From assembly GCA_012735435.1 (NCBI GenBank), contig JAAYHH010000011.1, forward strand, positions 14,141 to 78,140: 64,000 nt of DNA, read 5' to 3'. Origin of the DNA: Bacillota bacterium. Lineage in GTDB: Bacteria > Bacillota > Limnochordia > DTU087. The position numbers and the translations under genes are program-made. The notes beneath the pieces were generated by a model, which was not told where the DNA came from, did not search any database, and saw only the letters and a list, made by a program, of their open reading frames with translations. Positions 1,352-59,175 of this stretch are shown here, one piece after another (position 1 is the first letter of the stretch; each line of letters begins with the position of its first letter).

Positions 1352-1553
1352 TGAGAATACCTCCGGTATATCCTTATGTAGTGTTGATTCGCTGCAGCCT
1401 AGGGCGCTTCCTTGGTTTTGACTGATCTTGCTGGAGGGACCCGCAAGAGACAATCAGGGAAGAGCCTTATGTGAAAAGCTTGTAAGACCTTATGATGGTG
1501 TTTATCAGCAGAGCGACAGGACAGTTGGATAGTTATCAATGCCACCAGGATGC

Positions 1554-2520: not shown

Positions 2521-2579
2521 GGAAAAGACTAACGCTGGAACGGATTTTTCAGGTAACTGCCTTGGGAGGGGGCCAGCTC

Positions 2580-3200
2580 ATGCGAGAGCTCACGGAGCGA
2601 CAGAGGGAAGTGCTGGAATTTATCAAGGAACGGGTTCGGGAAAAGGGATATCCCCCATCTGTTCGGGAAATAGGCGAGGCTGTGGGGCTGCGGAGCAGTT
2701 CTACGGTGCATGGACATCTTCGGCGCTTGGAAAGTAAAGGATATATTCGACGGGATCCCACTAAACCCCGGGCAATAGAGATTATCCATGATGATGAGCC
2801 CGCAGAGAGTCCCATGATAAAGGACCTAGTGTCTGTTCCACTTGTAGGAAGTGTTACAGCCGGGCAGCCCATCCTGGCCGTGGAGAACATAGAAGATTAC
2901 GTCCCTCTTCCCAGGGACTTTGCGTCAGATGAGGCTACCTTTATGCTGCGGATCAAGGGAGACAGCATGATCGATGCAGGAATCCTCGATGGCGACTATG
3001 TCGTGGTGCGGCAGCAGCCGGATGCCACCAACGGAGACATCGTAGTGGCACTCTTACAAGATGAAGCCACAGTGAAGCGCTTCTATCGAGAAGCCGATCA
3101 CGTACGGCTGCAGCCTGAGAATCCCCTCTATGATCCCATCATCACTACCGATGTGCAGATCTTGGGGAAAGTCATCGGAGTCCTGCGGAGGCTCCACTGA
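2580..3200 (+). CDS. lexA: LexA repressor
   Basis: Winged-helix N-terminus [34 protein letters not shown]. The S24 autopeptidase core has the GDSM Ser and the VKRF Lys. Start is ATG 2580 after GGGAGGGGG; the track ORF starts at TTG 2562. Confidence 0.95.
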
Positions 3201-14313: not shown

Positions 14314-15249
14314 TCATATGTGAAAATTCCTCCAATAAATGGACACAATCTTGTGTACTGCGTCACGAATATTTAATCGGTCGAGGTCCAGCCATACGAT
14401 TTCCTTGTCCCGCCGGAACCAGGTTAGCTGGCGCTTGGCGTAGCGGCGGGTATCCCGCTTAAGGAGGCGAACAGCCTCCTCCAAATCATACTCTCCCCGC
14501 AGGTAGCCCACCAACTCCTTGTAGCCTAGGGCCTGCATGGCTGTGGAATCATCACTTAGGCCCTGCTGTAAAAGGCCCCTTACCTCATCCAACAGTCCAG
14601 CCTCCATCATGAGATCGACCCTGGCGTTGATGCGCTCATAGAGCCTGGCCCGATTGCGAATGAGTCCAAACTTCACCGATCTATGCCTGGGTCCCCGCTC
14701 CCTTTGCATCTTAAGGTGCTGGGAAAGGGCCTGACCTGTGGAATAGAATACTTCCAGGGCCCTGATAATCCGGCGGCGGTCATTGGGATGAAGCCTCCGG
14801 GCTGTTTCTGGATCCACCTGGGCTAGCTGCGCATGGAGCGCTTTGTTGCCCTTAATATCCGCCATCTCCTCCAACCTAGCCCGGAGCTCCGGATCCTTTC
14901 CTTCGGGGCTAAACACAAATCCCTGCAAGACAGCTTGAATGTAAAGCCCAGTACCCCCAGTCAAGATGGGAGTCTTGTCCCTTTTGGCCAGGTCTGCAAG
15001 AACTTCCTCCACCATGGCCTGGTAATCAGCGACGCTGAACTCATCTTGAGGATCAACTACGTCCAACAGGTGGTGGGGGATCCCCTGGCGTTCCTCTTCT
15101 GTGGGCTTGGCCGTGCCGATATCCAAGCCTCGATAAACCTGCATTGAATCGGCGGAGATAATCTCTCCATCTACCTCTTTTGCTACCTCAATGGCCAGCT
15201 CCGTCTTGCCTACTGCTGTAGGTCCTACAATTACCAATATGGGGCGCAT
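14314..15249 (-). CDS. miaA: tRNA dimethylallyltransferase
   Basis: [20 protein letters not shown]-loop and [16 protein letters not shown]. Start is ATG 15249 after GTGAAGGG. Confidence 0.9.
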
Positions 15250-15277
15250 GCCCTTCACTCCCACTGTCGTAATTGAT

Positions 15278-17119: not shown

Positions 17120-19831
17120 CTATTTCTCCTTACGCAGGCGAGCTTGCCACTCAACAAGTCGATTGAGAGCTTCAAAGGGCGTCATGTGGGTTAGCTCTGC
17201 TGTTTCGATCTCCCTCAGGATCTCAGCTTCCAAGCTGCTTCCCTCCAGCACGTCCTGTGAAGCTGCCAGCTCTTCCTGAAGCTCCAAGTGGGATGAGCGG
17301 TCTGCAGCCCCCTTTGCTGCCATTTCCTTGCTATTATCAGTTCCACGGTCTTCTTGGTCCGCTCCGGTCAAAAAGAACCCATCCAGTCTCAGCTGCTTGT
17401 ACGGCTGTTCAGGCTCCAGATCCTTTAGAACCGACTTTGCCCTTTCCAAAACGCCCTTGGGAAGTCCAGCCAAGCGGGCAACATGAATACCGTAACTTCG
17501 GTCCGCTGCGCCCTCTGCTACCTTGTAGAGGAAGACGACTTCCTTCCCATCCTCCCAGACTTCCATCCTCAGATTCTTGATCCTGGGTCTAGTCAAAGCC
17601 AGTTTTGCCAGCTCGTGGTAATGGGTTGAAAAAATCGTTCTGGCCTTAGTGACATCGTGGATATATTCAGCAATGGCCTGGGCGAGGGCCATGCCGTCAT
17701 AGGTGGAAGTGCCTCTTCCAAGCTCGTCGATGATAATCAAAGAACGGGGTGTGGCTTGACTGAGAGCGATATTCACTTCACTCATTTCCACCATAAAGGT
17801 ACTTTGTCCGGTACCAAGATCATCGGCTGCCCCTACCCTGGTGAAGATCCGGTCAACAAGGCCGATTTGGGCCTTATCAGCCGGTACAAAGGAGCCCATC
17901 TGAGCCATCAAGGTGATCAAGGCCACCATGCGTAAGTAAGTGCTCTTTCCAGCCATATTGGGACCGGTTAGGATTAGCAGCTGGGCTGTTTCATCATCTA
18001 GATAAACATCATTGGGAACAAACTGACCTTGGGGAAGCATTGCTTCCACCACCGGGTGCCGGCCTGCCTTAATATCGATGGACTTATCCTCCCGGATTTC
18101 CGGCCGGCAGTAGCGGCGCCGTACAGCTACCTCTCCAAGGGCCGCCAGGACATCCAACTGGCTGAGGACCCCTGCCAGACGCAAGAGCCGGGAAGCAGCC
18201 CCGTTTACCTGATCACGGATTTCGAGGAAGAGTTCGTACTCAAGCTGAATAGCCCGTTCCTCAGCTCCCAAGATGAGATTTTCCTTCTCCTTCAGCTCCG
18301 GGGTAATATACCGCTCGGAATTGGCCAGAGTCTGCTTTCGCTGGTAATGGTCAGGGACACTGGCTAGATTAGCCTTGGTCACTTCGATGTAATAGCCGAA
18401 CACTTTATTGAAACCGACCTTTAGGCTCTTAATGCCGGTTCTTTCCCGCTCAGCCGCCTCCAAAGCCGCTATCCAATCCTTGCCTTCCCGGGCGGCGGCC
18501 CGCAGCTGATCCAGCTCCTCGCAGTATCCCGGCCGGATGAGGCCGCCATCCCGCACCACGGCTGGAGGCGAATCCACCAAACTCTTCTGTAAAAGCTCAG
18601 CAAGTTCCGGCAGTGGATCTAGACTTTGGGCTAGTTCCTTCAATCTCGGTGCCTTGGCGGCAGCCACTGTTTGGTTTAGATCGGGGATTTTCAAAAGGGA
18701 CCTGCCCAAAGCCACTAGATCTCGGGGATTGGCGCTGCCGTAGGTTATCCGGCCTACTAGTCTCTCCAGATCGTAGATCCCCGACAGCTGCTCCCTCAGT
18801 CTAGTACGCATGGGGGTATCTTTGACCAATTCTTCAACAGCATCCAGCCGCTCTGTAATCTCCTCTTTATCCAGCCTGGGCTGCAGCACCCACTGGCGAA
18901 GCAGCCTGCCCCCCATAGCGGTGACGGTTTCATCCAGGAGCCAAAGTAAAGACCCTTTGTATTCACCATCCCGCAGTGTCTGGGTCAGCTCTAGATTGCG
19001 GCGGGTGGCCGTTTCCATCAGCATGTAGCTTTCCACCGAGTAAACGTTGACGGTAGTAATATGGCTCAGTACCCGCCTCTGGGTATCATTGAGATAAGAC
19101 AGCAGGGCGCCTCCGGCTCGAACAGCAGCGGCAGCATCGTCTAGACCAAAGGAGCTGAGGGATTTGATCCCGAAATGCCGAAGCAGCACTTCACTGGCGT
19201 AGGCATACCGCCAGCCTCGCTCTTCATATGGAGACAGCGTACAGTCGAGGCGTCTAACCGCCTCAGCTTTCCAGCTGGGCTCAGCATCTAAAGAGGGATC
19301 CAAGAGGCATTCTGCCGGAGCCAAACGTTCCAGCTCGTTCCAGAGCTTGTCCTCTGCCCCTGCACCCTGTATTTCTGTCACGGCAAAGTAGCCGGTAGAA
19401 ACATCCACCACCGCTAACCCGTAATATTTCTGATGGCGGCAGACAGCGGTTAAGTAGTTGTTGGCCTTATCATCCAGGAGTTGAGGTTCAATGACGGTTC
19501 CCGGTGTAACTACTCTCACTACTTCCCGTTTCACTACACCTTTGGCCGTCTTAGGGTCTTCTACCTGTTCGCAGATGGCTACCTTGTAGCCGGCCCGCAC
19601 CAGTGCCGCCAAATATCCTTCCACAGCGTGATAAGGCACACCGCACATGGGCAGCTCTTTTCCTTTTCCCATTTCCCGACTGGTTAAGGCAATATCTAAA
19701 ACCCGGGAACCGATCTCTGCATCGGCACCGAACATTTCATAAAAGTCTCCCAGGCGAAAAAGGAGCAGCGCATCTTGATGCTGCTGCTTGATGGAATAGT
19801 ACTGCCTGAGCATCGGTGTGAGATTCTCCAT
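17120..19831 (-). CDS. mutS: DNA mismatch repair protein MutS
   Basis: TPMLRQYYSIKQQHQDALLLFRLGDFYEMF, Walker A GPNMAGKST, and STFMVEMSE. Start is ATG 19831. Confidence 0.95.
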   Translation of the reverse strand: MENLTPMLRQYYSIKQQHQDALLLFRLGDFYEMFGADAEIGSRVLDIALTSREMGKGKELPMCGVPYHAVEGYLAALVRAGYKVAICEQVEDPKTAKGVVKREVVRVVTPGTVIEPQLLDDKANNYLTAVCRHQKYYGLAVVDVSTGYFAVTEIQGAGAEDKLWNELERLAPAECLLDPSLDAEPSWKAEAVRRLDCTLSPYEERGWRYAYASEVLLRHFGIKSLSSFGLDDAAAAVRAGGALLSYLNDTQRRVLSHITTVNVYSVESYMLMETATRRNLELTQTLRDGEYKGSLLWLLDETVTAMGGRLLRQWVLQPRLDKEEITERLDAVEELVKDTPMRTRLREQLSGIYDLERLVGRITYGSANPRDLVALGRSLLKIPDLNQTVAAAKAPRLKELAQSLDPLPELAELLQKSLVDSPPAVVRDGGLIRPGYCEELDQLRAAAREGKDWIAALEAAERERTGIKSLKVGFNKVFGYYIEVTKANLASVPDHYQRKQTLANSERYITPELKEKENLILGAEERAIQLEYELFLEIRDQVNGAASRLLRLAGVLSQLDVLAALGEVAVRRRYCRPEIREDKSIDIKAGRHPVVEAMLPQGQFVPNDVYLDDETAQLLILTGPNMAGKSTYLRMVALITLMAQMGSFVPADKAQIGLVDRIFTRVGAADDLGTGQSTFMVEMSEVNIALSQATPRSLIIIDELGRGTSTYDGMALAQAIAEYIHDVTKARTIFSTHYHELAKLALTRPRIKNLRMEVWEDGKEVVFLYKVAEGAADRSYGIHVARLAGLPKGVLERAKSVLKDLEPEQPYKQLRLDGFFLTGADQEDRGTDNSKEMAAKGAADRSSHLELQEELAASQDVLEGSSLEAEILREIETAELTHMTPFEALNRLVEWQARLRKEK

Positions 19832-19906
19832 TGTTATCGGTCCCCCTCCCAAGATAGTGCTTCTGCAACGGTTCTGACGGCTCCTGCCCCGCTGAGCCGG
19901 CTTGCA

Positions 19907-26017: not shown

Positions 26018-27574
26018 TTAGTTTACAAACCCGATAATCAACGCCAGTACCGCTGCAATGGTTGCGATATTGGCGGCACTCTTAAGACTCTGATTCTGCT
26101 TCTCAGCATGGGTTCGGTAGCTGTCAAACTCATCCCGCAGCTCCTGCAGCTGCCGCTCCAGCCGCTGTTCCCGCATTAGGGCTGCATTGATCTGGGCAGA
26201 TGATTGTGTAATCACCCGCTCATCAACGGCTGCCAGGGCAGACTCTGTGGCGCTTACCCGCTCCTGCAGTATAGAAACAGCTGCCTGCAGCTCTTCAACG
26301 TAATCCTGCAGATCTGCAAGATCCTTGCTGTCAGCTGCTGCACCCTGCTGCAAGATATTGGTCCTCTTGTCTAAGGCAGCGATCTTCTGAGAAATATTTA
26401 CAAGGTCTGTCTGGACTGCCTCCAAACTCCTAACCAGGTCTTGACGCAGACCGCTGACATCCTTCATCAATTGCCCATCCGCGGCAGCCATAGCTTCTCC
26501 CTGTTTCAAGACTTGATCCTGGAGCGCCTGCACATCTTCGGCAAGTGCAGCCGTCTCCTCAGAGCGGGCAAGTCTTTCCTCCGCTACAGCCTGCTGCAGC
26601 TGTCCAATTTCAGCGGTTAGCTGATCATCCCTCTGGGCGGATTCTTCTTGCCAGCTGCTCAGCTCTTGCTCCATTTGGACAAGCTGCTGGACAACCTCAG
26701 ACAGGCCCTTTTCCACCCGACTGATCTCTTCTGCCAGTTCAGCATCGGCCTCTTGCATGGCGTTCTGCAGTAAGCTTAAAGCCGCATCCCGTTCCGCAAA
26801 GCTGCTCTGGACCTTTACACCCAAAGCCTCCTCCAGCGCTACTAGTGAGTCAGTGTGGAGTGCCAGCATCCGGGTGTGCTCATCTAACCTTGCTTCATTG
26901 GCTTCAACAGCGGCCTCGGTATCGGCCAGGGCTGCTGCCTGTTTGACAAGCTCATCCTCAAGGGCTTGAAGCTTACGGCCCTGGTCAGCAGCCTGCTGCC
27001 TAAGGTCTGCATCAGCAGCTTCGAGGCGCCGGGTGGTATCGGCAACCTGCTGCTGGAGGGCGGCAATTTCCGCCAATATGGCTGCTGCCTGCTCCTGTAT
27101 AGAGGTGCGGATAGCTGCATCTTCCTGCTCCATTGTGTCGATGACCTTAGTCACAGTCTCATCCATTACCTGAACACGACGCTGGGTTTCGGTAACGGAA
27201 GCTGACAGCTCTTCCCTTTGATTATACCACCGTACAAGTTCATCCCTAAACTCGGTAGAAAGTGTCCGGAGCAGTTCCAAATCCTCCTGAGTTACACCCA
27301 GCTGCCCTTTTTCGATGTCCACTAGGAGCCGGCCAACTACTGAAGCCAGCGTATACCTATCGACAGGTCTCTGACCTTGAAAAGTTCCATCGGTATAGAG
27401 AGCAAGATAACCTTCCTGGACTAACTTTTGAACACCCTCATAGGCCCAATGGTCTGCAGGCACATCGCTGATCTGCTGTGCAGTCTGCTGGGCAAAAACA
27501 AGATTCCCCTGACCTACCAACAGCAGCAAAAACAGTAGTACAACTCCTATTCTTCGAATTGTCCTCGACTCCAT
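26018..27574 (-). CDS. SLH-domain, long coiled-coil, C-terminally membrane-anchored protein (Omp-alpha-like architecture)
   Basis: Signal peptide ending LVFAQQ. One SLH motif (DVPADHWAYEGVQKLVQEGYLALYTDGTFQGQRPVDRYTLA). About 390 aa of Ala/Gln/Glu/Leu-rich heptad-like sequence. Terminal hydrophobic tail IATIAAVLALIIGFVN. Confidence 0.75.
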   Translation of the reverse strand: MESRTIRRIGVVLLFLLLLVGQGNLVFAQQTAQQISDVPADHWAYEGVQKLVQEGYLALYTDGTFQGQRPVDRYTLASVVGRLLVDIEKGQLGVTQEDLELLRTLSTEFRDELVRWYNQREELSASVTETQRRVQVMDETVTKVIDTMEQEDAAIRTSIQEQAAAILAEIAALQQQVADTTRRLEAADADLRQQAADQGRKLQALEDELVKQAAALADTEAAVEANEARLDEHTRMLALHTDSLVALEEALGVKVQSSFAERDAALSLLQNAMQEADAELAEEISRVEKGLSEVVQQLVQMEQELSSWQEESAQRDDQLTAEIGQLQQAVAEERLARSEETAALAEDVQALQDQVLKQGEAMAAADGQLMKDVSGLRQDLVRSLEAVQTDLVNISQKIAALDKRTNILQQGAAADSKDLADLQDYVEELQAAVSILQERVSATESALAAVDERVITQSSAQINAALMREQRLERQLQELRDEFDSYRTHAEKQNQSLKSAANIATIAAVLALIIGFVN

Positions 27575-27630
27575 TTCCTCCCGCCCCCTGTCAATCTTCT
27601 TTGCTCCTCAGTGTTTTCCCAGCACCTTTG

Positions 27631-29664
27631 TTACCTGGCAACAGTAACCGGCAGTTCCATGGGTCCCAATTCGATCACCTGTCCACTGGTGGTGGTCAGC
27701 TTGGTACCCAGCAGCTGGATGACACCGGTGCCTTCAGCGCCTGCCACAAACCGGATTGAACACAGGTTACCTGTCAATCGACTGGGTCCCAGCTGTGAAA
27801 GCCCCCGGAGTTTCACCTGGATAATGCCCTGTGACGGCTGCAGCTCCACCTCCATCGGAGCGGCATCTCCCACGGCAGCCGATAGAGGTGCCAGGACCTC
27901 GCCCCGCTCTACTCCAAGGCGGCCGCCGGCTACCCGCATCAGGTCCACTGGAAACTTAAGCAAGAACTCTGCCTCTTCGATGTTCTTCAGATTATAGCCC
28001 CTTATGGCCGTCTTCATAGGCCCTCCCACAACAGCGGGGCCTGTCCCCTCTGCGATGAGTCTGATCATTTGGGGAAGCTGCGGTATGCTGATAAATTCAT
28101 TTACAATCAGCGGTTCGGTGGCACCGGACTCCACCCTCACCGAATAGGGCAGGCTGTCACTGGCCACATCGGTTGGGGTTAAGAACCACTGAACCACAAT
28201 GGACTCCTGTGGACCGAGATCTCCGCAGAGTTTAGTCCGCCCCTCACCAGGGGCCAGCTGAAGCCCCAAGGGTGCCTGCCATTGGGCATGAACCCACGGT
28301 GCATTCATTTCACCGACATTGGTGATGGTGGCCCTAACGGCAAAGGGTACCGGCTGCAGACTTCCATCTTCAACTAAGAGACGGGGCGGTGCGGAGATTT
28401 TCACCTGCAGTTCGGCAGGTTTGGCGATCCTAACTTGCCGCCGCACCCGGTTGGGCTCACTGTTGGCAGCTTCAACCTTTACTTCGTAGCTGATTTCACC
28501 TCTAATATGGTCAGCCACTTCCACTTGCCAGGCCAGCTGTACTGACTCTCCCACTTCCAAATTACCCAGGCTGCCGCCGGCCTCCTGTCCAGGAACCAGG
28601 GACAAGCCGCTGGGCAGTTCAATGGCTATCCTAACATCCCTAGCCTCACCTTCGCCGCTGTTCTCCAGATAGGCGACAATCGGGAACCTTGTCGGTCCGT
28701 CGGGGGCGTGGGAGACTACAGCAGGTGATGTGACTCCCAAGGAAAGCTTTCCGGGAGCAATGGTTATACCGCCAAGCCCGTAGTAAGTTACCCAAGTAAC
28801 GCTCTCGCCGGGACCGAGGGTGACCGGATCCCAAAACATAGCAATCGCCGAATCCAGCTCAAATTCACCCTTCCGGAGGAAAATGCGGCCAGGGTCAAAA
28901 TCAAAATCCCAGATGCTCTCTGCCAAAGCTCCCCAGTTGCTGAAGTACACCCGATCAGGCGGGGTTACCCCTGAACCCCGCAGGGTTCCCTGGGACATAA
29001 CCTGGGGATCGGCCAGGGAGTCGAATGCCTGCCAAAACTCCGGTATAGCTCCTCCGGTAAACAATGTATCGGTAGTAACAGCCTGCTGCTCTACCCTAAA
29101 GGGGGCACCGTCATTGGCGCCCAACATAGTATCCAGCATAAGCCGCATGGCTACGCTGTGGGAAACAGAATCCTCATTGGTCAAAGTATAGGCAATCCGG
29201 GCTGTATCTTGCAGACCAGTGGTGCTGCTTCGGGTAAAGCTGAGGATCTGCTCCGCTTTCACCGGCCCTAGTTTATATACAGTGCTGATGGCATTTCCCT
29301 GGATAACTTCGGGTCCTGAGATCAGCTCCCCGAATGGTCCTTGTCTTCCAGCGGAGGTCTGTGTCGGACCGCCAAATACATAGTTGCGACCGTCTATTTG
29401 GATCGTGGTGTAAGAAGTCCAAGGATCGGCCATGCCGTAAACTAAGGGTTTGTTTTCATCACCGATCCGGTCAGGATCTCCGCCGGTGGTGTTGATGGAG
29501 AACCGGCCGGTGTTTTCTTCGCCTCCGTTGACAATGATGGAAATGTATTCATTGGCGACAATGATATTGCTGCCGACGTTACCTTCGACCATAGCCCGGG
29601 CCTTCTCTACTTCACAGCTAATCAACATGACCGCAGCCAGGGCAATTGCCAACCAGCGCCGCAT
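27631..29664 (-). CDS. exported (possibly lipidated) 677-aa multidomain protein
   Basis: Signal MRRWLAIALAAVMLISC (lipobox-like LISC), or an AxA site KARA/M. It has an unrecognised ~300-aa N-domain. Two Ig/CARDB-like modules follow (IVAYLENSGEGEARDVRIAIELPSGL; VRATITNVGEMNAPWV). The C-terminal beta-sandwich resembles a cohesin (AEFLLKFPVDLMRV...GNLCSIRFVAGAEGTGVIQL). Confidence 0.7.
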   Translation of the reverse strand: MRRWLAIALAAVMLISCEVEKARAMVEGNVGSNIIVANEYISIIVNGGEENTGRFSINTTGGDPDRIGDENKPLVYGMADPWTSYTTIQIDGRNYVFGGPTQTSAGRQGPFGELISGPEVIQGNAISTVYKLGPVKAEQILSFTRSSTTGLQDTARIAYTLTNEDSVSHSVAMRLMLDTMLGANDGAPFRVEQQAVTTDTLFTGGAIPEFWQAFDSLADPQVMSQGTLRGSGVTPPDRVYFSNWGALAESIWDFDFDPGRIFLRKGEFELDSAIAMFWDPVTLGPGESVTWVTYYGLGGITIAPGKLSLGVTSPAVVSHAPDGPTRFPIVAYLENSGEGEARDVRIAIELPSGLSLVPGQEAGGSLGNLEVGESVQLAWQVEVADHIRGEISYEVKVEAANSEPNRVRRQVRIAKPAELQVKISAPPRLLVEDGSLQPVPFAVRATITNVGEMNAPWVHAQWQAPLGLQLAPGEGRTKLCGDLGPQESIVVQWFLTPTDVASDSLPYSVRVESGATEPLIVNEFISIPQLPQMIRLIAEGTGPAVVGGPMKTAIRGYNLKNIEEAEFLLKFPVDLMRVAGGRLGVERGEVLAPLSAAVGDAAPMEVELQPSQGIIQVKLRGLSQLGPSRLTGNLCSIRFVAGAEGTGVIQLLGTKLTTTSGQVIELGPMELPVTVAR

Positions 29665-29720
29665 TAATCACCAGCCCCCTAACTGTAGTATCGTTTCATT
29701 GGCGATCTATCGAGGAGCCA

Positions 29721-30647
29721 CTACTCGTTCCGGACATACCTGACACCATCGTAAAGAATCGATACCCTAAACTCCGGCGGACCGCTGAAGGAGACAGTTA
29801 CCGTCAGAATATAATCCTCCAGCAGCGGCTCCATTCGCCATCCGTTCTGGATAGTTAAGCTTGCTACCTGGTCTAGGCTTGCTGCCCCGGAAGACTGGAT
29901 GATGTCAATCCGGGTTGCTCTAGTAGACCCCTTGGGGACATAGGCATCCAGCTTCACAGTGCCTGCCAAGCCCTCGTTAATTGCATTCTTGGGGTACTGA
30001 ATCCGGCCACCGCCTGCTACCAGAGTGCTTGCCGCCGGCAGTGGAGGCAGTGGCGGTGGCGAAGGTGGTGTCGGTTCTGCCTCTTCATCGCTTTCTGTCT
30101 CGGATGAAGAACCGCCTGGTTCGCCGGCAGGGGCAGAATCGCCTCCAGCCATGACAGCATCTTGACCTTGCTCGCTGGTCAGGATTTGCTCCCCATTGCT
30201 GTCAGGCTGCGATAGAGCCTCTTCACTGGCTGCCGGATCCGGCTCAGGTTCAGGCTCAGGCACTACCCTGGTGTCAGGAGTCTTAACTTCCTCTTGGGGA
30301 GCCGGGGTCGTCTCCTGCGGCTTTGGTGCTGGCTCCGGTTCAGTCTTGGTTACCTCGGCCTTGGCAGTTTCAACCGGTTCCGGTTCTTCCTTCGGTGGCG
30401 TGGGTTCCTGACGACGGGGAGTTTGCTGCTGCGGCTGCTGCCTGACCGCTTGGGTTCTAGGCGCTGGCTGCTGGACCTCTACGGGTACAACAGAAATAAT
30501 ACCGCCGCCAGGACCTGCAAAAAGGCCGGGTCCAACCGCAAATTCCCAGCGGGGAAAGACAAAGAACAGCATTGCGTGAAGGATAAGCGAAATCAAGACA
30601 AAGGCTCCAAAGGAGCGGTCTGACTCATCTCCTGTATACATTGCCAC
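29721..30647 (-). CDS. TonB/TolA-type energy-transducing protein
   Basis: N-terminal TM with the SxxxH motif (FVLISLILHAMLFF). About 150 aa of Pro/Glu/Lys/Thr-rich spacer (EPEPEPDP, PPSPPPLPPLP). TonB_C-like end YPKNAINEGLAGTVKLDAYV...IIQSSGAASLDQVA. Confidence 0.75.
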   Translation of the reverse strand: MAMYTGDESDRSFGAFVLISLILHAMLFFVFPRWEFAVGPGLFAGPGGGIISVVPVEVQQPAPRTQAVRQQPQQQTPRRQEPTPPKEEPEPVETAKAEVTKTEPEPAPKPQETTPAPQEEVKTPDTRVVPEPEPEPDPAASEEALSQPDSNGEQILTSEQGQDAVMAGGDSAPAGEPGGSSSETESDEEAEPTPPSPPPLPPLPAASTLVAGGGRIQYPKNAINEGLAGTVKLDAYVPKGSTRATRIDIIQSSGAASLDQVASLTIQNGWRMEPLLEDYILTVTVSFSGPPEFRVSILYDGVRYVRNE

Positions 30648-30691
30648 ACCACCTCCCCTCGGATTTGGCTGACGCCAAAGGGTGTACCATG

Positions 30692-31105
30692 CTACCTGCC
30701 CCGGGGTTCAACTGCAAGGCCAAAGCGATATCCTCCCAGCTGCCGAACAACATCCATTACTTGAACTATATAATCATAGCGAGCCTCCCGGTCAGCTTTA
30801 ATGACGACAAAAAGGTCCGGCCTTTTCTCCAATGCTTTGCCGACCTCTGACCTTAGAGTATTACTACTGACCTGACGCTCACCCAAGAACATCCGTCCAT
30901 CTTTAGCTACAGAAATGGTGATCTGGCTGCTGGCTTGTCTGTCCCAACTTGCCGCCTTGGGCAGTTCAAGATTCAATCCTGCTGGATGGGTCTTAAAGGT
31001 CGTAGCCAGCATGAAGAACACCAAAACAGAAAAAATAATATCAACCAGCGGCACTATTTGAATCGTTGGCTTTTTGTTGCGGACAGAGCGGCGGGCTATC
31101 ATCAC
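30692..31105 (-). CDS. exbD: ExbD/TolR family proton-channel subunit
   Basis: A 137-aa protein. Its single TM carries the conserved Asp (IVPLVDIIFSVLVFFM), followed by a periplasmic domain (VVIKADREARYDYIVQVMD). It overlaps exbB by 4 nt. Confidence 0.85.
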   Translation of the reverse strand: MMIARRSVRNKKPTIQIVPLVDIIFSVLVFFMLATTFKTHPAGLNLELPKAASWDRQASSQITISVAKDGRMFLGERQVSSNTLRSEVGKALEKRPDLFVVIKADREARYDYIVQVMDVVRQLGGYRFGLAVEPRGR

Positions 31106-31716
31106 ACATCACCCCTCGCCTCAAAGATGGCCAACAGCTCCGAAGAGCGTTTGTTGATATCAACCACTAGGCGGTCGATTAATCCCGAAAGGTAAGAATA
31201 AATCAGAGTACCCGGAATGGCGATTACTAAGCCGGTTGCAGTTGTAATTAGGGCTTCTGCAATTCCTGTGCTTAAGGCAAGGGTATCATCTAAGCCGCCA
31301 ACCGCTGAAATCACTTGAAAACTATTGATAATACCTGTTACTGTACCTAAGAGACCAAGCAACGGTGCAGCGGTGATGATTGCATCGAGAAGTCCCAGCC
31401 GGCGTTCCATACGGAAGACCTCTTCATAGGCCACTTCTTCCAAGCGCTCTCGGATAAACTGCTTGTCCTTATCATAATGGGCTATCCCCGCCGCCAGTAC
31501 AGCCGCAACCGGGCCTCTGGTTTTCTTTGCTATCTGGATAGCTTCCAGGATTTTGCCTTGCTGAAGAGCCAGTTTAATGTCATCCATCAAATCCTCTGTA
31601 TCTACTCGACAGCGAAGCAAGTAGACCAGCCTTTCGAGAGAGACAGCTACCATCAATACAGAGCAAAGCAGCAACGGGATCATTACCGGGCCGCCCCGAA
31701 TGATCAAATCCAGCAT
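31102..31716 (-). CDS. exbB: MotA/TolQ/ExbB family proton-channel subunit
   Basis: Three TM spans and the conserved C-terminal half AAPLLGLLGTVTGIINSF...GIAEALITTATGLVIAIP. ATG 31716 follows GGAGG plus 8 nt; the track ORF starts at 31743. Confidence 0.85.
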   Translation of the reverse strand: MLDLIIRGGPVMIPLLLCSVLMVAVSLERLVYLLRCRVDTEDLMDDIKLALQQGKILEAIQIAKKTRGPVAAVLAAGIAHYDKDKQFIRERLEEVAYEEVFRMERRLGLLDAIITAAPLLGLLGTVTGIINSFQVISAVGGLDDTLALSTGIAEALITTATGLVIAIPGTLIYSYLSGLIDRLVVDINKRSSELLAIFEARGDV

Positions 31717-31756
31717 TCTATATACCTCCACTCCGTCCCACATTCATTGGGTAAGA

Positions 31757-40518: not shown

Positions 40519-41697
40519 TCAGCATTCCTGGTGGTTCTTGACGCGGCCGTAACGCCCACCCCCGCCCTCGGCTAGAGCAAGACGCCCTTCCCTGGCAGCA
40601 GCGATGTTTTCAGCCACCTTGGTTCCAACCACATCCTCCAGCTCCCCAAGGGATGTTCCGTGGAGTATCTCCATCTCGGTGCCGAAGGCCTCCAGAAGCT
40701 TATTTAGGGTTTTCTTGCCGACACCGGGAATGAACTCCAAGGGAACTTGGTGAATATAAGGAGGACGGTTTGGGGGATGTACGGGTTCATTTTCATCGGC
40801 GATGGCGGTGATGCGATCCAGCACCCCTACAACGACCTTATCGCTGTCACACCTGCTGCATTGATAAACCGGGGGAGCACCCTCAACTACCCTTTCACAC
40901 TTAAGGCAAAAGGTCCGGTGATACTTGCCCAAGCGTGGCTCTAGACCGTAATTGGCCAGAATTATGTTTTCCGGGTCACCAGCAAGTGCTTTGCAAAAAT
41001 GGGCAAAGTCAGGTTTTATCAGCTTTAGCTTGTTGTATTCCCGGGCAATTTTGGGAAGGGAATGGGCATCTGAATTGCTCAAAAACCGTACATTGGATAA
41101 TTCATGGATTCTATCAGCCAAGTAGGTATCGGAACTTAACCCCAGCTCCAAGGCAGTAAAGTCTACGCCAATTTCAGCTAAGCGCCTTACGCAGTTGCCG
41201 TAAACGCTCTTGAAGGGGGTGAAGGCATGGGCCGGCAAGAAAATCCCTGAAAGTTCACGTACTACGAACTCATTGACTTCCTGAATCTCGAGACTAGCCC
41301 GCTGAGAGCTCAGGGAAATATTGGTAATAGCCCCAGATAAGAATTGGCTTAGCTCCTCCATGGTCTTCAAGGAAGGGGTAAAGGCGAGGAAATGGGCACT
41401 TCCTCCTTGAGGTCCCCCGAGCTCAATCTCTGCCCCTAGAAGCAGGGTGACCTTCCCCAGATAATCCAAGCCTCCACCTGGAAGAGCTGTCAAGTCGCCT
41501 CTATCAACCAATGCCCGAAGGTCAGCCAATACAGCTGGAGAAGCGCAGTCGACGATGCCGGCGATTTGTATTCCTTTGCGTTCTGAGCATTCCTTTAGTA
41601 TTCCTTCTACAGTTAAGGCGGGTGAGGCAGTAATTTTCACCGGAGCTCCGCACCCGGCCCGGCCGATATGGATGTGCAAGTCAGCAAAAAAGATCAA
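40519..41697 (-). CDS. PHP-domain nuclease of the endonuclease Q-like (TIGR00375-type) family
   Basis: N-terminal ADLHIHIGR metal site, Zn-ribbon CLKC...CSRC, and C-terminal helix-hairpin-helix IPGVGKKTLNKLLEAFG. TTG 41697 is chosen after AGGAGG plus 8 nt; the track ORF starts at 41805. Confidence 0.65.
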   Translation of the reverse strand: MIFFADLHIHIGRAGCGAPVKITASPALTVEGILKECSERKGIQIAGIVDCASPAVLADLRALVDRGDLTALPGGGLDYLGKVTLLLGAEIELGGPQGGSAHFLAFTPSLKTMEELSQFLSGAITNISLSSQRASLEIQEVNEFVVRELSGIFLPAHAFTPFKSVYGNCVRRLAEIGVDFTALELGLSSDTYLADRIHELSNVRFLSNSDAHSLPKIAREYNKLKLIKPDFAHFCKALAGDPENIILANYGLEPRLGKYHRTFCLKCERVVEGAPPVYQCSRCDSDKVVVGVLDRITAIADENEPVHPPNRPPYIHQVPLEFIPGVGKKTLNKLLEAFGTEMEILHGTSLGELEDVVGTKVAENIAAAREGRLALAEGGGGRYGRVKNHQEC

Positions 41698-41775
41698 TAA
41701 AAATACCTCCTGGTTCCAAGACAAGGCTGCAGTTGGACGAAGCCTTTGTGCTCCTTCAATTGCTACATCCACTGC

Positions 41776-41805
41776 AAAATACCAAAAAGGCGCCATACCT
41801 GTCAA
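41776..41805 (-). promoter_or_regulatory. candidate sigma-A promoter for the EndoQ-like gene
   Basis: Minus strand TTGACA (41805-41800), 18 nt spacer, TGgTATTTT (-10 at 41781-41776). Confidence 0.4.
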
Positions 41806-52375: not shown

Positions 52376-54139
52376 TCATTCATCGAATTCCCAACGCAAA
52401 TCGGCCAAGTCCTTGAGAGTCTTCTTGTCTTTACCCTGCTGCTTGTTGTCTTCTTCACTCTCATCCTGGAACTTAACTTTGAGGTCATCCAACCGTCCCG
52501 CAAGGGTAAAACCGCTCTCATCATCCTCAGGTCCTGCAACATACTCAGAAATTTCCACTTCGTCCTGCTGCTGATCTCCGGAAAACAAAGTGGGCAGCGG
52601 TTCTTCTTCAATTAGTTCTTCCTCAAGCAGAGATTCTAGATCCTGTTTGCGGGTCTTGCGGCTCCTTGCCTTACCCAGCCCGGCGGCCGGTTTGGGCGTC
52701 CGCCTCCGCCAGAGGGTATCTTCATCCAATTCGGTTTCTATCTCCTCGGGCTCTTCATCCAGCTCATCGACGTCATCATCTAGAGCTGCCTGCTCCAAGG
52801 GTTCTGATTCGTCATCGGCATAAACCGAGAGCTCTTCTTCGTGCTCTTCCTCCAGCGGCAGTTCCTCGAGATAGTCGGATTCATCAGCTTCCTCTGGAGC
52901 AGTTTCCTCATCCAATTCCTGCTCATCGTCAGCTGCCGTCAGCTCACCATCCTCACTGACTGTATCGCCTTCTTCAAGTTCACTATCCGCTGCAACTACT
53001 GCCGCAAGGTCTTCATCTTGAGCCGTTAGGTCTTCCTCGCCGGAGACCTCGTCAATCTCCTCGTCCTTAGGTGTTGCCCGTTCAAAGGCTTCCTTGGCCA
53101 GGATCTGGGCCATTTGCTCCTGGCTCTTGATATCTATTCTCCATCCGGTAAGCCGTGCCGCCAGCCTGGCGTTTTGTCCTTCTTTCCCGATGGCCAGGGA
53201 CAGATGATTGTCCGGCACCACGGCTCTAGCCGTTTTGGTCGATTCATCCAGGTAGGTCTTAACTACATGGGCTGGGCTCAGGGCATTGGCTACAAACTCT
53301 TCTTCTATTGGCGCCCAGGGGATAATGTCAATCTTTTCACCCCGCAGCTCCGATACAACAGCCTGGACCCGCATGCCCCTTGGACCTACACATGCGCCCA
53401 CAGGATCGACATTTGGGTCCCGAGAATAAACTGCTATCTTGGTGCGGGCGCCGGCTTCCCTGGCCACTGCCTTGATCTCCACTGTTCCATCGTAGATTTC
53501 TGGAACTTCCATTTCAAACAAGCGCAGCACCAGGCCCGGATGTGTTCGGGAGACTGCTATATGGGGTCCCTTGCCGGTTTGTCGAACTTCGCTGATGTAG
53601 ACCTTGATTCTGGTCCCCTGGGTGAGCGGTTCGCCCGGCATTTGATCAGACGGGGCCAAAACCGCCTCTGCCTTGCCCAGGTCAATAATCACATTGCGGT
53701 TTTCCCTGCGCTGAACAATGCCGGTGACGACGTCTCCTTCCCTATTCTTAAATTCATCATAGATGAGCGCCCTCTCGGCTTCCCGAATCCTCTGGATAAC
53801 CACCTGTTTGGCAGTTTGAGCAGCTATGCGGCCGAAATCCTCGGGGGTTACCTCTACATCGACGACATCATCCAGCTTGTAGTTGGGGTCCATAGCCTGG
53901 GCTTCCTGCAAACTGATCTGCAGGGAATCATCGGTTACTTCGTCAACTACAACCTTGCGGGCGTAGACATTGATTTCCCCCGTGTTTTCATCAACTTCTA
54001 CCCTCACGTTTTGGGCTGTCCCATAGTTGCGCTTATAAGCCGTAGTGATGGCAGCCTCTATGGCTTCTAATATGATTTCTTTAGTAATTCCCCGCTCTTT
54101 TTCCAACTCGTTAAGAGCGCTCATCACTTCGAAGTTCAT
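52376..54139 (-). CDS. nusA: transcription termination/antitermination factor NusA with long acidic C-terminal extension
   Basis: N-domain, S1, KH1 (VGACVGPRGMRVQAV) and KH2 (LAIGKEGQNARLAARLTGWRIDI) occupy residues 1-350. Residues ~356-587 are Asp/Glu-rich low complexity. Confidence 0.95.
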   Translation of the reverse strand: MNFEVMSALNELEKERGITKEIILEAIEAAITTAYKRNYGTAQNVRVEVDENTGEINVYARKVVVDEVTDDSLQISLQEAQAMDPNYKLDDVVDVEVTPEDFGRIAAQTAKQVVIQRIREAERALIYDEFKNREGDVVTGIVQRRENRNVIIDLGKAEAVLAPSDQMPGEPLTQGTRIKVYISEVRQTGKGPHIAVSRTHPGLVLRLFEMEVPEIYDGTVEIKAVAREAGARTKIAVYSRDPNVDPVGACVGPRGMRVQAVVSELRGEKIDIIPWAPIEEEFVANALSPAHVVKTYLDESTKTARAVVPDNHLSLAIGKEGQNARLAARLTGWRIDIKSQEQMAQILAKEAFERATPKDEEIDEVSGEEDLTAQDEDLAAVVAADSELEEGDTVSEDGELTAADDEQELDEETAPEEADESDYLEELPLEEEHEEELSVYADDESEPLEQAALDDDVDELDEEPEEIETELDEDTLWRRRTPKPAAGLGKARSRKTRKQDLESLLEEELIEEEPLPTLFSGDQQQDEVEISEYVAGPEDDESGFTLAGRLDDLKVKFQDESEEDNKQQGKDKKTLKDLADLRWEFDE

Positions 54140-54944: not shown

Positions 54945-57900
54945 TTAGAAAAGTGACAGCTGGGAGGTTTTGGGAAGCCCGGCTAGTGCTCCGTGGGCAC
55001 CTAGGGTTTCAATGACCGTTCGACTGACGCCGCACCTCATCCTGATATCCTCCCATGATGCAAAGGGTCCCTCTTCCCTGCCCTGGGCCAGCATCAGGGC
55101 TGCCCCTTCCCCTACTCCCGGTACAATTGCCAGGGGCGGCCTCAGCTCTTCCCCTTCGATCACAAAGCGGTTGGGATGGGACTTGTATATGTCAACGGTA
55201 TGAAAATCTATTCCCCGGAGCATGGCCTCCATAACGACTTCAGCCACTGTCAGCAGACTTTTCTCTTTAGCAGTGGCGCTGCCGCCTTTGGCGGAAATGG
55301 AATGGATGATCTCCTTTACACCTGCAAGGCCGCCCGTGATCAGCTGAACCTCGAAGGTATTAACCCGGGTAGAAAAATAGGCAGCGTAATAGGCCAGGGG
55401 ATAATGTACCTTAAAGTACGCTATCCGGAAGGCCATGGTCACATATGCCACTGCATGGGCCTTGGGGAATAGGTAGCTGATCTTTTTGCAGGAGTCGATG
55501 TACCACTGGGGGACTCCTACTTTTTCCATGGCCTCAACGTCTTCAGGTCTTAATCCCCTTCCCTTCCGGACCCTTTCCATGATTACGAAGGCGGTCTCTG
55601 GTTCCATCCCCTTTTGAATAAGGTAATTCATGATGTCATCCCGGGTGGCGATGGCCTGGCTAAGGTCAGCAGTTCCGTTCTTGATCAACTCTTGAGCATT
55701 ATTGGTCCAGACATTGGTTCCATGGGAAAACCCGCTGATACGCACCAGTTCTCCAAAGGACTTGGGCCGGGTTTCCTCAAGCATCTGCCGGACAAAACGG
55801 GTGCCGAACTCAGGAACGCCCAAAGTCCCAACGGTAGTGCCAAGATCATCGGGGCTTATCCCTAAGGCCTCCACACTGGAGAAGATGCTCATGGTAGCAG
55901 GGTCATCAAGCGGTATATCCAGGACCGGCACTCCAGTCATATCCTCCAGCATCCGGAGCATTGTGGGATCGTCATGGCCGAGAATATCCAATTTCACCAG
56001 GTTGTCGCTGATGGCATTGTAATCAAAATGGGTAGTGATGGTGCCGCTGGCAGCATCATTGGCCGGGTACTGTACCGGTGAAAACTCGTTGATATCCCGG
56101 CCTTCGGGAACCACAATCATGCCGCCGGGGTGCTGGCCGGTGGTACGCCGCACTCCAGTACAGCCCTTGACCAGCCGGTTGATTTCAGCGGTTCTGGCAG
56201 TTTGCCCTTTGCTTTCTAAGTATTTGCACACAAAGCCGTAGCTGGTCTTCTCCGCCAGTGTGCCGATGGTGCCCGCCCGGAACACGTATTCTTTGCCGAA
56301 AAGCTCCTCTGTGTACTTATGAACACAGGCCTGATATTCCCCGGAAAAATTGAGATCTATATCAGGCACCTTTTCCCCGTGAAAGCCCATGAAAACCTCA
56401 AAGGGGATATCAAAGCCCAATTTTCGGTATTGTGTACCGCATTGACAGTGCTTGTCTGGCAGGTCGATACCAGTTTGTACTGAACCATCGGTAATAAATT
56501 CCGCATGGTGGCACTGGGGACAAACATAATGGGGCGGCAGGGGATTTACCTCGGTCACCCCGCAGAGGGTAGCCACCAGTGATGAGCCCACAGAACCCCG
56601 GGAACCTACCAGATAACCATCGCTGAGGGATTTTTTTACCAGCTTGTGGGCAATCAGATAGAGAACAGCAAATCCGTTGCCGACAATGGCATTTAGTTCC
56701 TTCTCAATCCGCTCCTTGACCAGCGGGGGCAGCGGATCACCATACAGCTTCCGGGCGTTGGCATAGGTCATCTCGGTGATCTGCTCTTCAGCTCCTTCGA
56801 TCTTGGGGGCATGCAGGCCGTCGGGGATGGGCCGCAGCTCTTCGATCATTTCCGCGATGCGATTGGGCCCGTGGATCACCACTTCCCTGGCAGTCTCTTC
56901 ATCGAGATACGCGAACTCCGCCAGCATTTCCTCAGTTGTCCGGAAAAACAAAGGTGCCTGCCTTTCAGCATCTTCATATCCTTGACCGGCCATCAGGATG
57001 CGGCGGTAGATTTCATCCCATGGATGCAGGTAGTGGACATCGCAGGTAGCCACCACCGGTTTTCCCAGACGCTCTCCTAGAGCAACAATACCCCGGTTGA
57101 TCTCCTCTAGGTCTTCTTGTGACTGGACTTTATCACCGATCATGAAGGCATTGTTGCCCAACGGCTGGATTTCCAGGTAATCATAGAAATCGGCTATTTT
57201 CATCAGCCGTTCTTCATCGCTGCCTTGCAGGAAAGCTTGGTACACTTCACCAGCTTCACATGCGGAACCGATGATGAGACCCTCTCGATACTTCTCAATC
57301 AATCGGCGGGGCAGACGGGGCCGGCGGTAGAAATACTTTAGATGGGATAGGGATACCAGTCTATACAGGTTGTGCAGGCCCTGCTGATTTCTAGCCAAAA
57401 GTACTATGTGATAGGAGGGAGCCCTGGGGTCATCCCCATCGATGAGATACCCTTCCATCCCGTAAATTATCTTGATGCCGGCCTTCTTGCCGGCGAAGTA
57501 AGCCTCGGGAAAAGCTTGGACGACGCCGTGATCCGTGATGGCAACTGCCTTGTGGCCCCAGCTTGCTGCCAATTGGATAATCTCTCCGACATCGACAGTT
57601 CCGTCCATAGCAGACATCTTGGTATGAAGATGCAGCTCAACCCGCTTTTCAGGGGCCTCATCCCGCCGAACAAATTCAGCGAGGGGCTCCTGGATCTCTA
57701 TGTCGTTGGGCAGCATAGTGAGCTCCTGGGTATAGCGATCCCACTGGACGGAGCCCCTCACCCGCAGCCAGACGCCCGGGCTGAGTTCCGGTGCCAGCCG
57801 GGGAGCATCTTCATCTTCGAAAAGCTTAAGGGTAATAGAATCGCGATAGTCGGTGAGGTCGATCATTACCAAGCGCCGACCGCTCCGGAGTTCCTTTTCC

Positions 57901-58433
57901 TCGACCTTGATGATTTCACCGGCAGTGACGTAGGAACGCTCTTCGTCGGTGATCTCAGCTATAGAACGGGGTTCCTCCCGGATAGACCGTCCCTTCAATA
58001 CGCCCCTTGAGCCTTTCTTGGCAGAGACTTCAGTTTGCTTGGGCGGGGGATCTTCGATGGCTTGGCGACTAGCCCGTTCCATTACATATGACATATAGGT
58101 AGCTTCGTCGGCAAGGAGGAGATCACTGATCGGAGGTTCAAGAGACTTGTGGTTTTCGCCAACAGCTACGTCAAAGGAAACTGACCGCACCCCTGGCAGA
58201 AATTTCACCAGGGCTTGACTTAAGGTGTCCAATTCTCGGCGACACAGTTCCCCTCCAGCTGCTAAACAGATTTTCCACTCCTGGCGTTGGCAGTGAACCA
58301 AGATTCTTTCTACAACAGCTCGGGCGGCTGTTCCTTCACAGCTTACTGGAAGTTGAGCCGCCCGCAGGAAATCTGATAGGGATTGCCCTTTGGTTCGGGG
58401 AGTTACTACATATACAGTTGCATTACCAGCCAC
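54945..58433 (-). CDS. polC: PolC-type DNA polymerase III alpha subunit lacking the inserted 3'-5' exonuclease domain
   Basis: PolC order of domains: N-domain; OB; PHP (VELHLHTKMSAMDG...AITDHGVVQAFPEAY); palm/fingers with the PolC Zn module (HYVCPQCHHAEF...CQCGTQY); GQHPGGMIVVP; and a C-terminus ending QLSLF. At 1162 aa it is shorter than the ~1430 aa typical for PolC. GTG 58433 follows GAAAGGA. Confidence 0.9.
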   Translation of the reverse strand: MAGNATVYVVTPRTKGQSLSDFLRAAQLPVSCEGTAARAVVERILVHCQRQEWKICLAAGGELCRRELDTLSQALVKFLPGVRSVSFDVAVGENHKSLEPPISDLLLADEATYMSYVMERASRQAIEDPPPKQTEVSAKKGSRGVLKGRSIREEPRSIAEITDEERSYVTAGEIIKVEEKELRSGRRLVMIDLTDYRDSITLKLFEDEDAPRLAPELSPGVWLRVRGSVQWDRYTQELTMLPNDIEIQEPLAEFVRRDEAPEKRVELHLHTKMSAMDGTVDVGEIIQLAASWGHKAVAITDHGVVQAFPEAYFAGKKAGIKIIYGMEGYLIDGDDPRAPSYHIVLLARNQQGLHNLYRLVSLSHLKYFYRRPRLPRRLIEKYREGLIIGSACEAGEVYQAFLQGSDEERLMKIADFYDYLEIQPLGNNAFMIGDKVQSQEDLEEINRGIVALGERLGKPVVATCDVHYLHPWDEIYRRILMAGQGYEDAERQAPLFFRTTEEMLAEFAYLDEETAREVVIHGPNRIAEMIEELRPIPDGLHAPKIEGAEEQITEMTYANARKLYGDPLPPLVKERIEKELNAIVGNGFAVLYLIAHKLVKKSLSDGYLVGSRGSVGSSLVATLCGVTEVNPLPPHYVCPQCHHAEFITDGSVQTGIDLPDKHCQCGTQYRKLGFDIPFEVFMGFHGEKVPDIDLNFSGEYQACVHKYTEELFGKEYVFRAGTIGTLAEKTSYGFVCKYLESKGQTARTAEINRLVKGCTGVRRTTGQHPGGMIVVPEGRDINEFSPVQYPANDAASGTITTHFDYNAISDNLVKLDILGHDDPTMLRMLEDMTGVPVLDIPLDDPATMSIFSSVEALGISPDDLGTTVGTLGVPEFGTRFVRQMLEETRPKSFGELVRISGFSHGTNVWTNNAQELIKNGTADLSQAIATRDDIMNYLIQKGMEPETAFVIMERVRKGRGLRPEDVEAMEKVGVPQWYIDSCKKISYLFPKAHAVAYVTMAFRIAYFKVHYPLAYYAAYFSTRVNTFEVQLITGGLAGVKEIIHSISAKGGSATAKEKSLLTVAEVVMEAMLRGIDFHTVDIYKSHPNRFVIEGEELRPPLAIVPGVGEGAALMLAQGREEGPFASWEDIRMRCGVSRTVIETLGAHGALAGLPKTSQLSLF

Positions 58434-58464
58434 TTTCAGGATCCTTTCCAGTTGCAGTAAGTTC

Positions 58465-59175
58465 TTACTTAGGTCCCAAAACTTTTATAATCTCCCAGTA
58501 CATCTTGAGACGGTTTCGTGCCCCTGGAATAAATCCTTGCTTTTCCTCTTTCATGACGTGGGACACATCTTTAAGCAGTACCTTTTCCACTCGAATGCCA
58601 TTGGCAGCCACATACTTGGAGATGGCTACTTCTACGCCGTACCGGCTATCTTCCAGCTGGGGGATGTCCTCGAGGATCTCCCGGCGGATAGCTCTCTGGC
58701 CCGAGAGAAAAGGCGTTATCTTCTGGGCTATAGTAGTCGGCGCCCGTCCGCCTGCAAATATCCCCACAGTCATATCTGTCCTGCCGGAAACCACCGGCTC
58801 CAGCAGGTCGTAACAGTGGGCTTCAGTGAGCCCAACTAAGTCTGCATCTACAAACAGCAATATGTCGGCTGAGGTTGCCTTGGCCCCAGCCTTCATCGCG
58901 CCGCCCTTGCCCCGGTTGGGATAGAGACTGATCACCCTTGCTCCGAGGCTGCTGGCCACTTGAGCAGTACGATCCGATGACCCATCATTGACCACGATCA
59001 CTTCATCGATGGCCTTGCACCTTTGCAGCACCTGGAGTATACTGCCGATGGTATATTCCTCGTTGTAAGCAGGAACCACGGCAGCAACCTTAGGCTTACT
59101 TGCTGCTATTTCTCCGCTACTGCGTGCGCACACACTCGGACTCCGCGATGGCTCTTGTGATTCGGTCTTGAACAT
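58465..59175 (-). CDS. family 2 glycosyltransferase (GT-A fold)
   Basis: AAVVPAYNEE, VVNDGSSDRT, NRGKGGA and the DAD (DxD) motif. About 236 aa with no TM. ATG 59175 lies 59 nt inside the proS 3' end. Confidence 0.75.
   Translation of the reverse strand: MFKTESQEPSRSPSVCARSSGEIAASKPKVAAVVPAYNEEYTIGSILQVLQRCKAIDEVIVVNDGSSDRTAQVASSLGARVISLYPNRGKGGAMKAGAKATSADILLFVDADLVGLTEAHCYDLLEPVVSGRTDMTVGIFAGGRAPTTIAQKITPFLSGQRAIRREILEDIPQLEDSRYGVEVAISKYVAANGIRVEKVLLKDVSHVMKEEKQGFIPGARNRLKMYWEIIKVLGPK

Follow-up and report, generated by a model that had tools for sequence, protein, structure and literature searches.

PolC-type replicative polymerases that lack the DEDDh exonuclease insertion (Exo) were described in 2014, in a survey that found the insertion to be absent in ~6% of PolCs (Timinskas, Balvociute, Timinskas and Venclovas 2014, NAR 42:1393; PMC3919608). 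Such proteins came exclusively from Clostridia and Negativicutes, in which PolC and DnaE1 occur as a pair. The same survey noted that the PolC + DnaE1 system of Clostridia is experimentally uncharacterised. Clostridia have since been reported to possess usually three candidate proofreaders, with the PHP domain often inactive in PolC + DnaE3 systems (2026 survey, PMC12926913). Here, we analyse the polC gene of a 64,000-nucleotide stretch of Bacillota DNA (contig JAAYHH010000011.1, positions 14,141 to 78,140 of the forward strand, assembly GCA_012735435.1; hereafter the window), which encodes an Exo-less PolC of 1162 amino acids with an intact PHP metal site. This architecture is already known from the 2014 publication and the window protein is already annotated as PolC, its NCBI record (NLY51446.1) being named “PolC-type DNA polymerase III”. 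Our additions are modest: Exo appears to have been lost recurrently, and its absence is associated with an intact PHP domain.

The window PolC shares with the published Exo-less PolCs an OB fold, the PHP domain, the Pol3 polymerase domain, the helix-hairpin-helix domain, the lack of a DEDDh insert and a conserved PHP metal site (PMC3919608). Cultured examples of this class, from Moorella thermoacetica (P0084), Thermanaeromonas toyohensis (P0103) and Thermosinus carboxydivorans (P0083), are 56-58% identical to it in a 12-sequence PolC alignment that includes four Exo-containing relatives (alignment A1), and 60-62% identical by local BLASTP. It differs from the proteins surveyed in 2014 in belonging to a Limnochordia-like lineage, Limnochordia being a class that the survey did not name, and it is smaller than other Exo-less PolCs (1162 against ~1200-1240 amino acids), being without subdomain II of the N-terminal domain (NTD-II). 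The nearest genomes to the window PolC are Bacillota metagenome-assembled genomes from anaerobic digesters; a cluster at 86% identity has a member labelled Limnochordia, and the window clade adjoins a Limnochordia-labelled clade in a neighbour-joining tree. We take the window gene to be the chromosomal polC of an uncultured, Limnochordia-like member of the Bacillota whose habitat was an anaerobic digester.

With the canonical PolCs (Bacillus subtilis, Geobacillus kaustophilus 3f2b, and 9qpc) the window protein shares family, domain order, Zn module, catalytic Asp residues and clamp motif. The canonical proteins differ in having a ~200-residue DEDDh domain within a PHP loop and an N-terminal domain of two subdomains, and those of Bacilli have Asn at PHP ligand 8. 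The G. kaustophilus chain 3f2b matches the window PolC in a single stretch (1245 bits, E = 0). This chain is an engineered construct from which the N-terminal domain and Exo were deleted, with a GSGSG linker (PMC3919608, Fig. 1 legend), and it is this construct that the natural window PolC resembles. The third comparison is with the DnaE1 polymerases that proofread with their PHP domain (Thermus Pol III alpha; Mycobacterium tuberculosis DnaE1, PMC5636811). They share with the window PolC nine aligned PHP ligands and the lack of an integral DEDDh domain, whereas they belong to another C-family group, have the OB fold at the C-terminus and have a longer PHP loop (33 residues in M. tuberculosis and 22 in Thermus aquaticus, against 14 here).

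The window open reading frame is a PolC-type replicative DNA polymerase of the already described Exo-less, clostridial-type class. It scores well above the cutoffs of both PolC equivalog models (1523 bits against 873 for NF001688; 1405 bits against 1043 for TIGR01405) and far under the cutoff of all DnaE models. Its equivalog match is split, with query residues 338-1162 falling on profile positions 612-1444. The OB fold precedes the PHP domain by Pfam, as in PolC, whereas DnaE has it at the C-terminus. Residues D691, D693 and D816 of the polymerase core are invariant columns in A1, and we take them to be the catalytic triad by homology to E. coli D401, D403 and D555. Nearly all homologues of the window PolC keep a QLxLF-type C-terminus. 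The gene and the domains of its product are as follows.

54945-58433, minus strand: polC coding sequence, 1162 codons plus stop, GTG start, no internal stop.
58442-58449, minus strand: Shine-Dalgarno-like GGAAAGGA, 8 nt upstream of the polC GTG start, read from the sequence.
58161-58433, minus strand: N-terminal subdomain I, residues 1-91 (hhalign 98.6%, E 8.8e-16, template columns 1-89 of 227).
57927-58160, minus strand: poorly conserved linker, residues 92-169, at the position of N-terminal subdomain II in other PolCs.
57693-57926, minus strand: OB fold, residues 170-247, N-terminal to PHP (Pfam PF01336, E 3e-10).
56844-57638, minus strand: PHP domain, residues ~266-530, with nine metal ligands (Pfam PF02811 match at 266-417, E 2e-37).
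57411-57440, minus strand: junction at the DEDDh exonuclease insertion point, residues 332-341, DGDDPRAPSY (from alignment with relatives).
55254-56783, minus strand: polymerase core of palm, thumb and fingers, residues ~551-1060 (Pfam PF07733, E 9e-58; PF17657, E 3e-24).
56439-56522, minus strand: Zn module CPQC...CQC, C638/C641/C663/C665 (four Cys invariant in A1).
54972-55214, minus strand: tandem helix-hairpin-helix domain, residues 1074-1154 (Pfam PF14579, HHH_6, E 2e-11).
54948-54962, minus strand: C-terminal beta-clamp-binding motif QLSLF, residues 1158-1162 (sequence motif).

At the PHP site where the four Exo-containing relatives in A1 carry 199-200 extra residues with the motifs FVVFDLETTG, LVAHNAxFD and HHRAVDDA, the window PolC reads GYLIDGDDP followed directly by RAPSYHIVLL. 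Residues ~437-627 of the full-length PolC 9qpc have no counterpart in it, and the linker at this junction is 9 residues long in its clade. No Pfam match to RNase_T (PF00929) was obtained in the window PolC, regular expressions for the three Exo motifs found none across the 1162 residues, and neither a narrow nor a broad PolC-Exo hidden Markov model (HMM) matched it. The narrow model, built from 4 sequences, missed the eroded Exo relics described below, and the broader one was built for this reason. Hidden or divergent Exo motifs were thus considered and ruled out by all four approaches.

These results bear out each element of the description that an earlier note on this DNA had drawn from its letters and open reading frames. 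The PolC-specific architecture that it described is supported by both NCBIfam equivalog models, and the OB fold that it placed before PHP is found there by Pfam (170-247, then 266-417). The Zn module and the QLSLF end are both present (C638/C641/C663/C665; residues 1158-1162). Its central claim, a precise absence of Exo with an intact frame, holds with the junction at residues 332-341 (nucleotides 57411-57440), and the proper alignment that could have exposed overlooked DEDDh motifs revealed none, so the absence stands. The N-domain that it mentioned can be narrowed to subdomain I (residues 1-91), subdomain II having no counterpart.

All nine positions of the PHP metal site, which the note had singled out for checking, are occupied in the window PolC by the expected ligands (HHDHEHCDH: H268, H270, D277, H302, E327, H342, C392, D465 and H467). 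They align one-for-one with those of the T. aquaticus (2hpi) and M. tuberculosis (5lew) DnaE1 enzymes and are invariant in 121/121 close homologues, whether Exo is present or not; all 115 Exo-less homologues have the full set. An “active” PHP has been defined by the motif HHDHEH[C/H]DH (PMC12926913). Ligand 8 is Asp here (D465, in CDVHY) and Asn (GNVHY) in the solved Bacilli PolCs 3f2b and 9qpc. G. kaustophilus PolC, with one PHP ligand changed, has no PHP exonuclease activity, and the same Asp-to-Asn change in M. tuberculosis (D226N) abolishes this activity (PMC5636811). The PolC Exo insertion sits in a loop beside the PHP active site, and in M. tuberculosis the PHP loop lines the primer entry path, with loop mutations cutting proofreading (PMC5636811). 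In Clostridium thermocellum PolC, mutation of the PHP Cys ligand that corresponds to C392 raises the mutation rate ~30-fold (preprint). We had considered the C. thermocellum enzyme as an experimental example of an Exo-less PolC and rejected it, the residue numbering and domain figure showing that it has Exo; it is still informative on PHP.

Could the domain be missing only because the region was misassembled or collapsed, or because the gene is a decaying pseudogene? That the sequence comes from a metagenome-assembled genome invites the question, but we regard an artefact as extremely improbable. The frame is intact, and the ratio of nonsynonymous to synonymous substitution rates (dN/dS by Nei-Gojobori, in comparisons with four orthologues of 84-91% identity) comes to 0.07-0.08 for polC overall, 0.05-0.08 for PHP and 0.045-0.06 for the polymerase core; the gene is under strong purifying selection. 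The 9-residue junction recurs in many independent assemblies at 66-91% identity. The Exo-less architecture, already published, is found in 115 of the best 120 database homologues and in 61/79 PolC genes from species-level reference genomes of relatives. It is also encoded in the closed genomes of cultured Moorella and Thermanaeromonas (contigs of 2.5-3.3 Mb), and in Thermosinus. This sharing among independent assemblies, complete genomes included, rules out misassembly, which the note had left as one way for its claim to fail. Another was that the gene might be a paralogue. Pfam annotation of the neighbours gives the order dxr-rseP-ispG-proS-GT2-polC-rimP-nusA-infB-nrnA-truB-ribF-pnp, which contains the canonical Bacillota polC locus, proS-polC-rimP-nusA-infB; hence the window gene is the polC orthologue rather than some stray paralogue. 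A family-2 glycosyltransferase gene (58465-59175, minus strand) splits the proS/polC adjacency and ends 31 nt upstream of the polC start. In the related metagenome-assembled genome DAIQRD01, two different Exo-less polC genes (loci L004 and L006) occur, each on a contig of its own and with 74% and 71% identity to the window gene; they probably reflect a mixed bin of two related populations rather than a true duplication.

Exo appears to have been lost more than once. In the neighbour-joining tree, which was built on the shared PolC core, clades without Exo are scattered among clades that carry it. Linker length differs from one Exo-minus clade to the next (7/9, 11, 12-14, 16, 18, 25, 32-33 or 79 residues), and the linker sequences are unrelated between clades. 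Fitch parsimony over 40 bootstrap trees gives 5-9 changes of Exo state (median 7). As it is implausible that a homologous domain was inserted anew at one and the same position, we infer that Exo was lost independently at least 5 times. The linkers of 7-79 residues in this first homologue set were examined as possible Exo remnants and rejected, having no Exo similarity.

Exo absence and the state of the PHP domain are associated. We searched 1.84 billion cluster representatives without filtering and classified 142 complete PolCs, which are representatives at 50% identity. Of the 98 Exo-containing proteins, 57 have an intact PHP and 41 a broken one; PHP is intact in 30 and broken in 4 of those in which Exo is absent and the linker short, and intact in all 10 proteins with Exo-sized inserts that Pfam RNase_T does not detect. 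Thus PHP is intact in 40/44 PolCs with Exo absent or eroded and in 57/98 with Exo present (Fisher p = 7e-5, uncorrected for phylogeny). Five of the 10 inserts weakly match the PolC-Exo HMM (E 1e-10 to 4e-4), and we read these five as probable eroded Exo relics. Exo-sized inserts of 137-286 residues lie at the same PHP position in PolCs of some Clostridia (P0222, P0209, P0255, P0152 and P0221, and also P0146, P0148, P0175 and P0198), all with the PHP motif intact; the ExoI motif in these inserts is degenerate, as in FVSIHIGTTGD. Rare PolC-like proteins have neither Exo nor an intact PHP motif, such as P0228 (1178 residues, reading HRSLENSDQ, on contigs of up to 134 kb) and, likewise, the fragments P0236, P0247 and P0275. 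Judged by the Exo and PHP criteria, proteins of the P0228 type are without a recognisable intrinsic proofreader.

In light of the window PolC being Exo-less, what might proofread for it? The earlier note had offered a competent PHP domain or a DnaQ-like protein acting in trans, and this pair of options fares well, being the same two alternatives given in the literature (PMC3919608) and the nine PHP ligands being intact. We lean towards the PHP domain, backed by mismatch repair. The domain would itself carry out 3'-5' proofreading with three metal ions (Zn/Mn) bound by the nine ligands, on the model of the PHP proofreading performed by Thermus Pol III alpha and by M. tuberculosis DnaE1, and leftover errors would be fixed by the MutS and MutL encoded in the same window. 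Exo would then be redundant in this lineage, which under this proposal would explain its loss. The mismatch repair genes, mutL (15278-17116) and mutS (17120-19852), are adjacent on the minus strand and appear intact, with miaA (14314-15309) following.

Several points weigh against PHP proofreading. The E327-H342 loop is short, at 14 residues against 22 in T. aquaticus and 33 in M. tuberculosis. Clostridial PolCs keep an intact PHP with or without Exo, so that its conservation may be structural and not catalytic. The Fisher test of the Exo/PHP association ignores phylogeny, and the searches for DnaQ and DnaE1 covered the window and the polC loci, so that a stand-alone DnaQ or a dominant DnaE1 may be encoded elsewhere in the genome. 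In the literature searched, we found no biochemical assay of any Exo-less PolC, and PHP exonuclease activity was shown there only for DnaE-type and PolX enzymes and for no PolC.

One alternative is that proofreading occurs in trans, with a separately encoded DnaQ-like epsilon that docks onto the PHP domain of PolC, in the manner of E. coli Pol III, and the PHP metal site having a structural role. The short PHP loop resembles the E. coli loop in length, and bacteria commonly encode stand-alone DnaQ homologues, averaging more than 3 per proteome (PMC12926913); mycobacteria are reported to use a DnaQ as a second proofreader beside PHP (PMC11348249). Yet the same 2026 survey places canonical stand-alone DnaQ mainly in proteobacteria, mycobacteria and Treponema and not in Clostridia (PMC12926913), and C. 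thermocellum is reported to be without an epsilon subunit (preprint). Nor is there a candidate near polC: no DEDDh domain was found in any frame of the 64-kb window with either HMM, in ~47 of its open reading frames by Pfam, or within 10 kb on either side of polC in 61 Exo-less loci. A related idea, that Exo had split off as a neighbouring gene, was rejected, as neither the window nor any of 80 related loci gave a match beyond polC itself. Proofreading in trans would also fail to account for the concentration of Exo loss in lineages with an intact PHP, and we consider it unlikely.

Another option, raised by Timinskas et al., is that PolC is a subordinate or specialised polymerase that does not proofread, a co-resident DnaE1 with an active PHP being the main high-fidelity replicase and mismatch repair handling the errors of PolC. 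They noted that, where it accompanies PolC, DnaE1 shows all the features of a replicase able to work alone, that DnaE1 occurs by itself in some Clostridia, and that Exo-less PolCs are confined to clostridial bacteria (PMC3919608); the presence of MutS and MutL in the window is also in keeping with this. No DnaE-type gene was found in the window or in the 80 related polC loci. Against a subordinate PolC are the very constrained polymerase core (dN/dS 0.045-0.06), the near-consensus clamp motif, the retention of the canonical locus, and the placement of nearly all window genes on one strand with a monotonic GC skew. The nine PHP ligands in 115/115 Exo-less proteins would be hard to explain if the site were unused, and the ~30-fold mutator effect of a PHP-ligand mutation in a clostridial PolC indicates that PolC matters for genome-wide fidelity there. 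We therefore hold a subordinate role to be quite improbable.

The PHP reading that we prefer may extend beyond this protein. It is conceivable, though we put it forward only tentatively, that in clostridial-type PolCs generally PHP, and not the DEDDh insert, is the principal proofreader and Exo is dispensable. This would explain the at least 5 excisions with clade-specific linkers, the persistence in some Clostridia of eroded Exo relics without catalytic motifs, and the near-confinement of loss or erosion to PolCs with a perfect PHP. If this is true, the Limnochordia-like “minimal PolC” without Exo and NTD-II would be an end point of reduction.

The second reduction concerns the N-terminus. 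No hhalign match was obtained to template columns ~90-200, which cover NTD-II in the N-terminal domain of full-length PolCs, and the Pfam NI and NII models do not match the window PolC. A1 columns 104-195 (NTD-II) are gapped in the window PolC and in P0002, P0005, P0016 and P0076. The subdomain (~90 residues) is missing from the window PolC's clade and the Limnochordia-like clade and is kept by Moorella, Thermosinus and the Exo-containing PolCs. With Exo and NTD-II both gone, these PolCs are doubly reduced, “minimal” proteins of ~1125-1180 residues. The NCBI product NLY51446.1 has 1049 residues and starts at Met114. The 113 codons upstream of it (58095-58433) are conserved among homologues and match NTD-I, with a dN/dS of 0.17-0.24 over codons 2-113, that is, purifying selection. 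This selection, along with the Shine-Dalgarno-like site 8 nt upstream of the GTG, favours the long start; the NCBI start is probably too short and the GTG start right.

Elsewhere in the window, the Pfam-matched genes lie nearly all on the minus strand, the only clear exception being the gene for the LexA repressor, an SOS regulator (2562-3200, plus strand), and cumulative GC skew falls monotonically across the whole stretch. Strong co-orientation of genes with replication is typical of genomes that use PolC. A tyrosine recombinase/integrase gene (317-1453, minus strand) lies close to lexA near the window start. Genes for an SLH domain protein (26018-27574), a TonB C-terminal domain (29721-30647) and ExbB/MotA (31102-31743) are clustered at 26018-31743 on the minus strand, which hints at an outer-membrane (diderm) envelope and is consistent with a Limnochordia-like Bacillota. 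NusA (52376-54139, minus strand) has an extremely acidic (D/E-rich), low-complexity C-terminal extension of ~240 residues after its KH domains. A 428-residue open reading frame (40519-41805, minus strand) beside a DUF3866 gene matches no Pfam family at E <= 1e-5 and has weak helix-hairpin-helix matches (HHH_5, IMS_HHH) near its C-terminus.

Taken alone, the window PolC is one more case of a published architecture and changes nothing. As a class, however, PolCs that are Exo-less by nature offer the cleanest system in which to ask whether the PHP domain of a PolC can proofread. The recurrent loss of Exo and its association with an intact PHP give a PHP-proofreading experiment a clear prediction, and the answer matters for how faithfully clostridial pathogens and industrial acetogens replicate their DNA, as well as for antibiotics directed at PolC.

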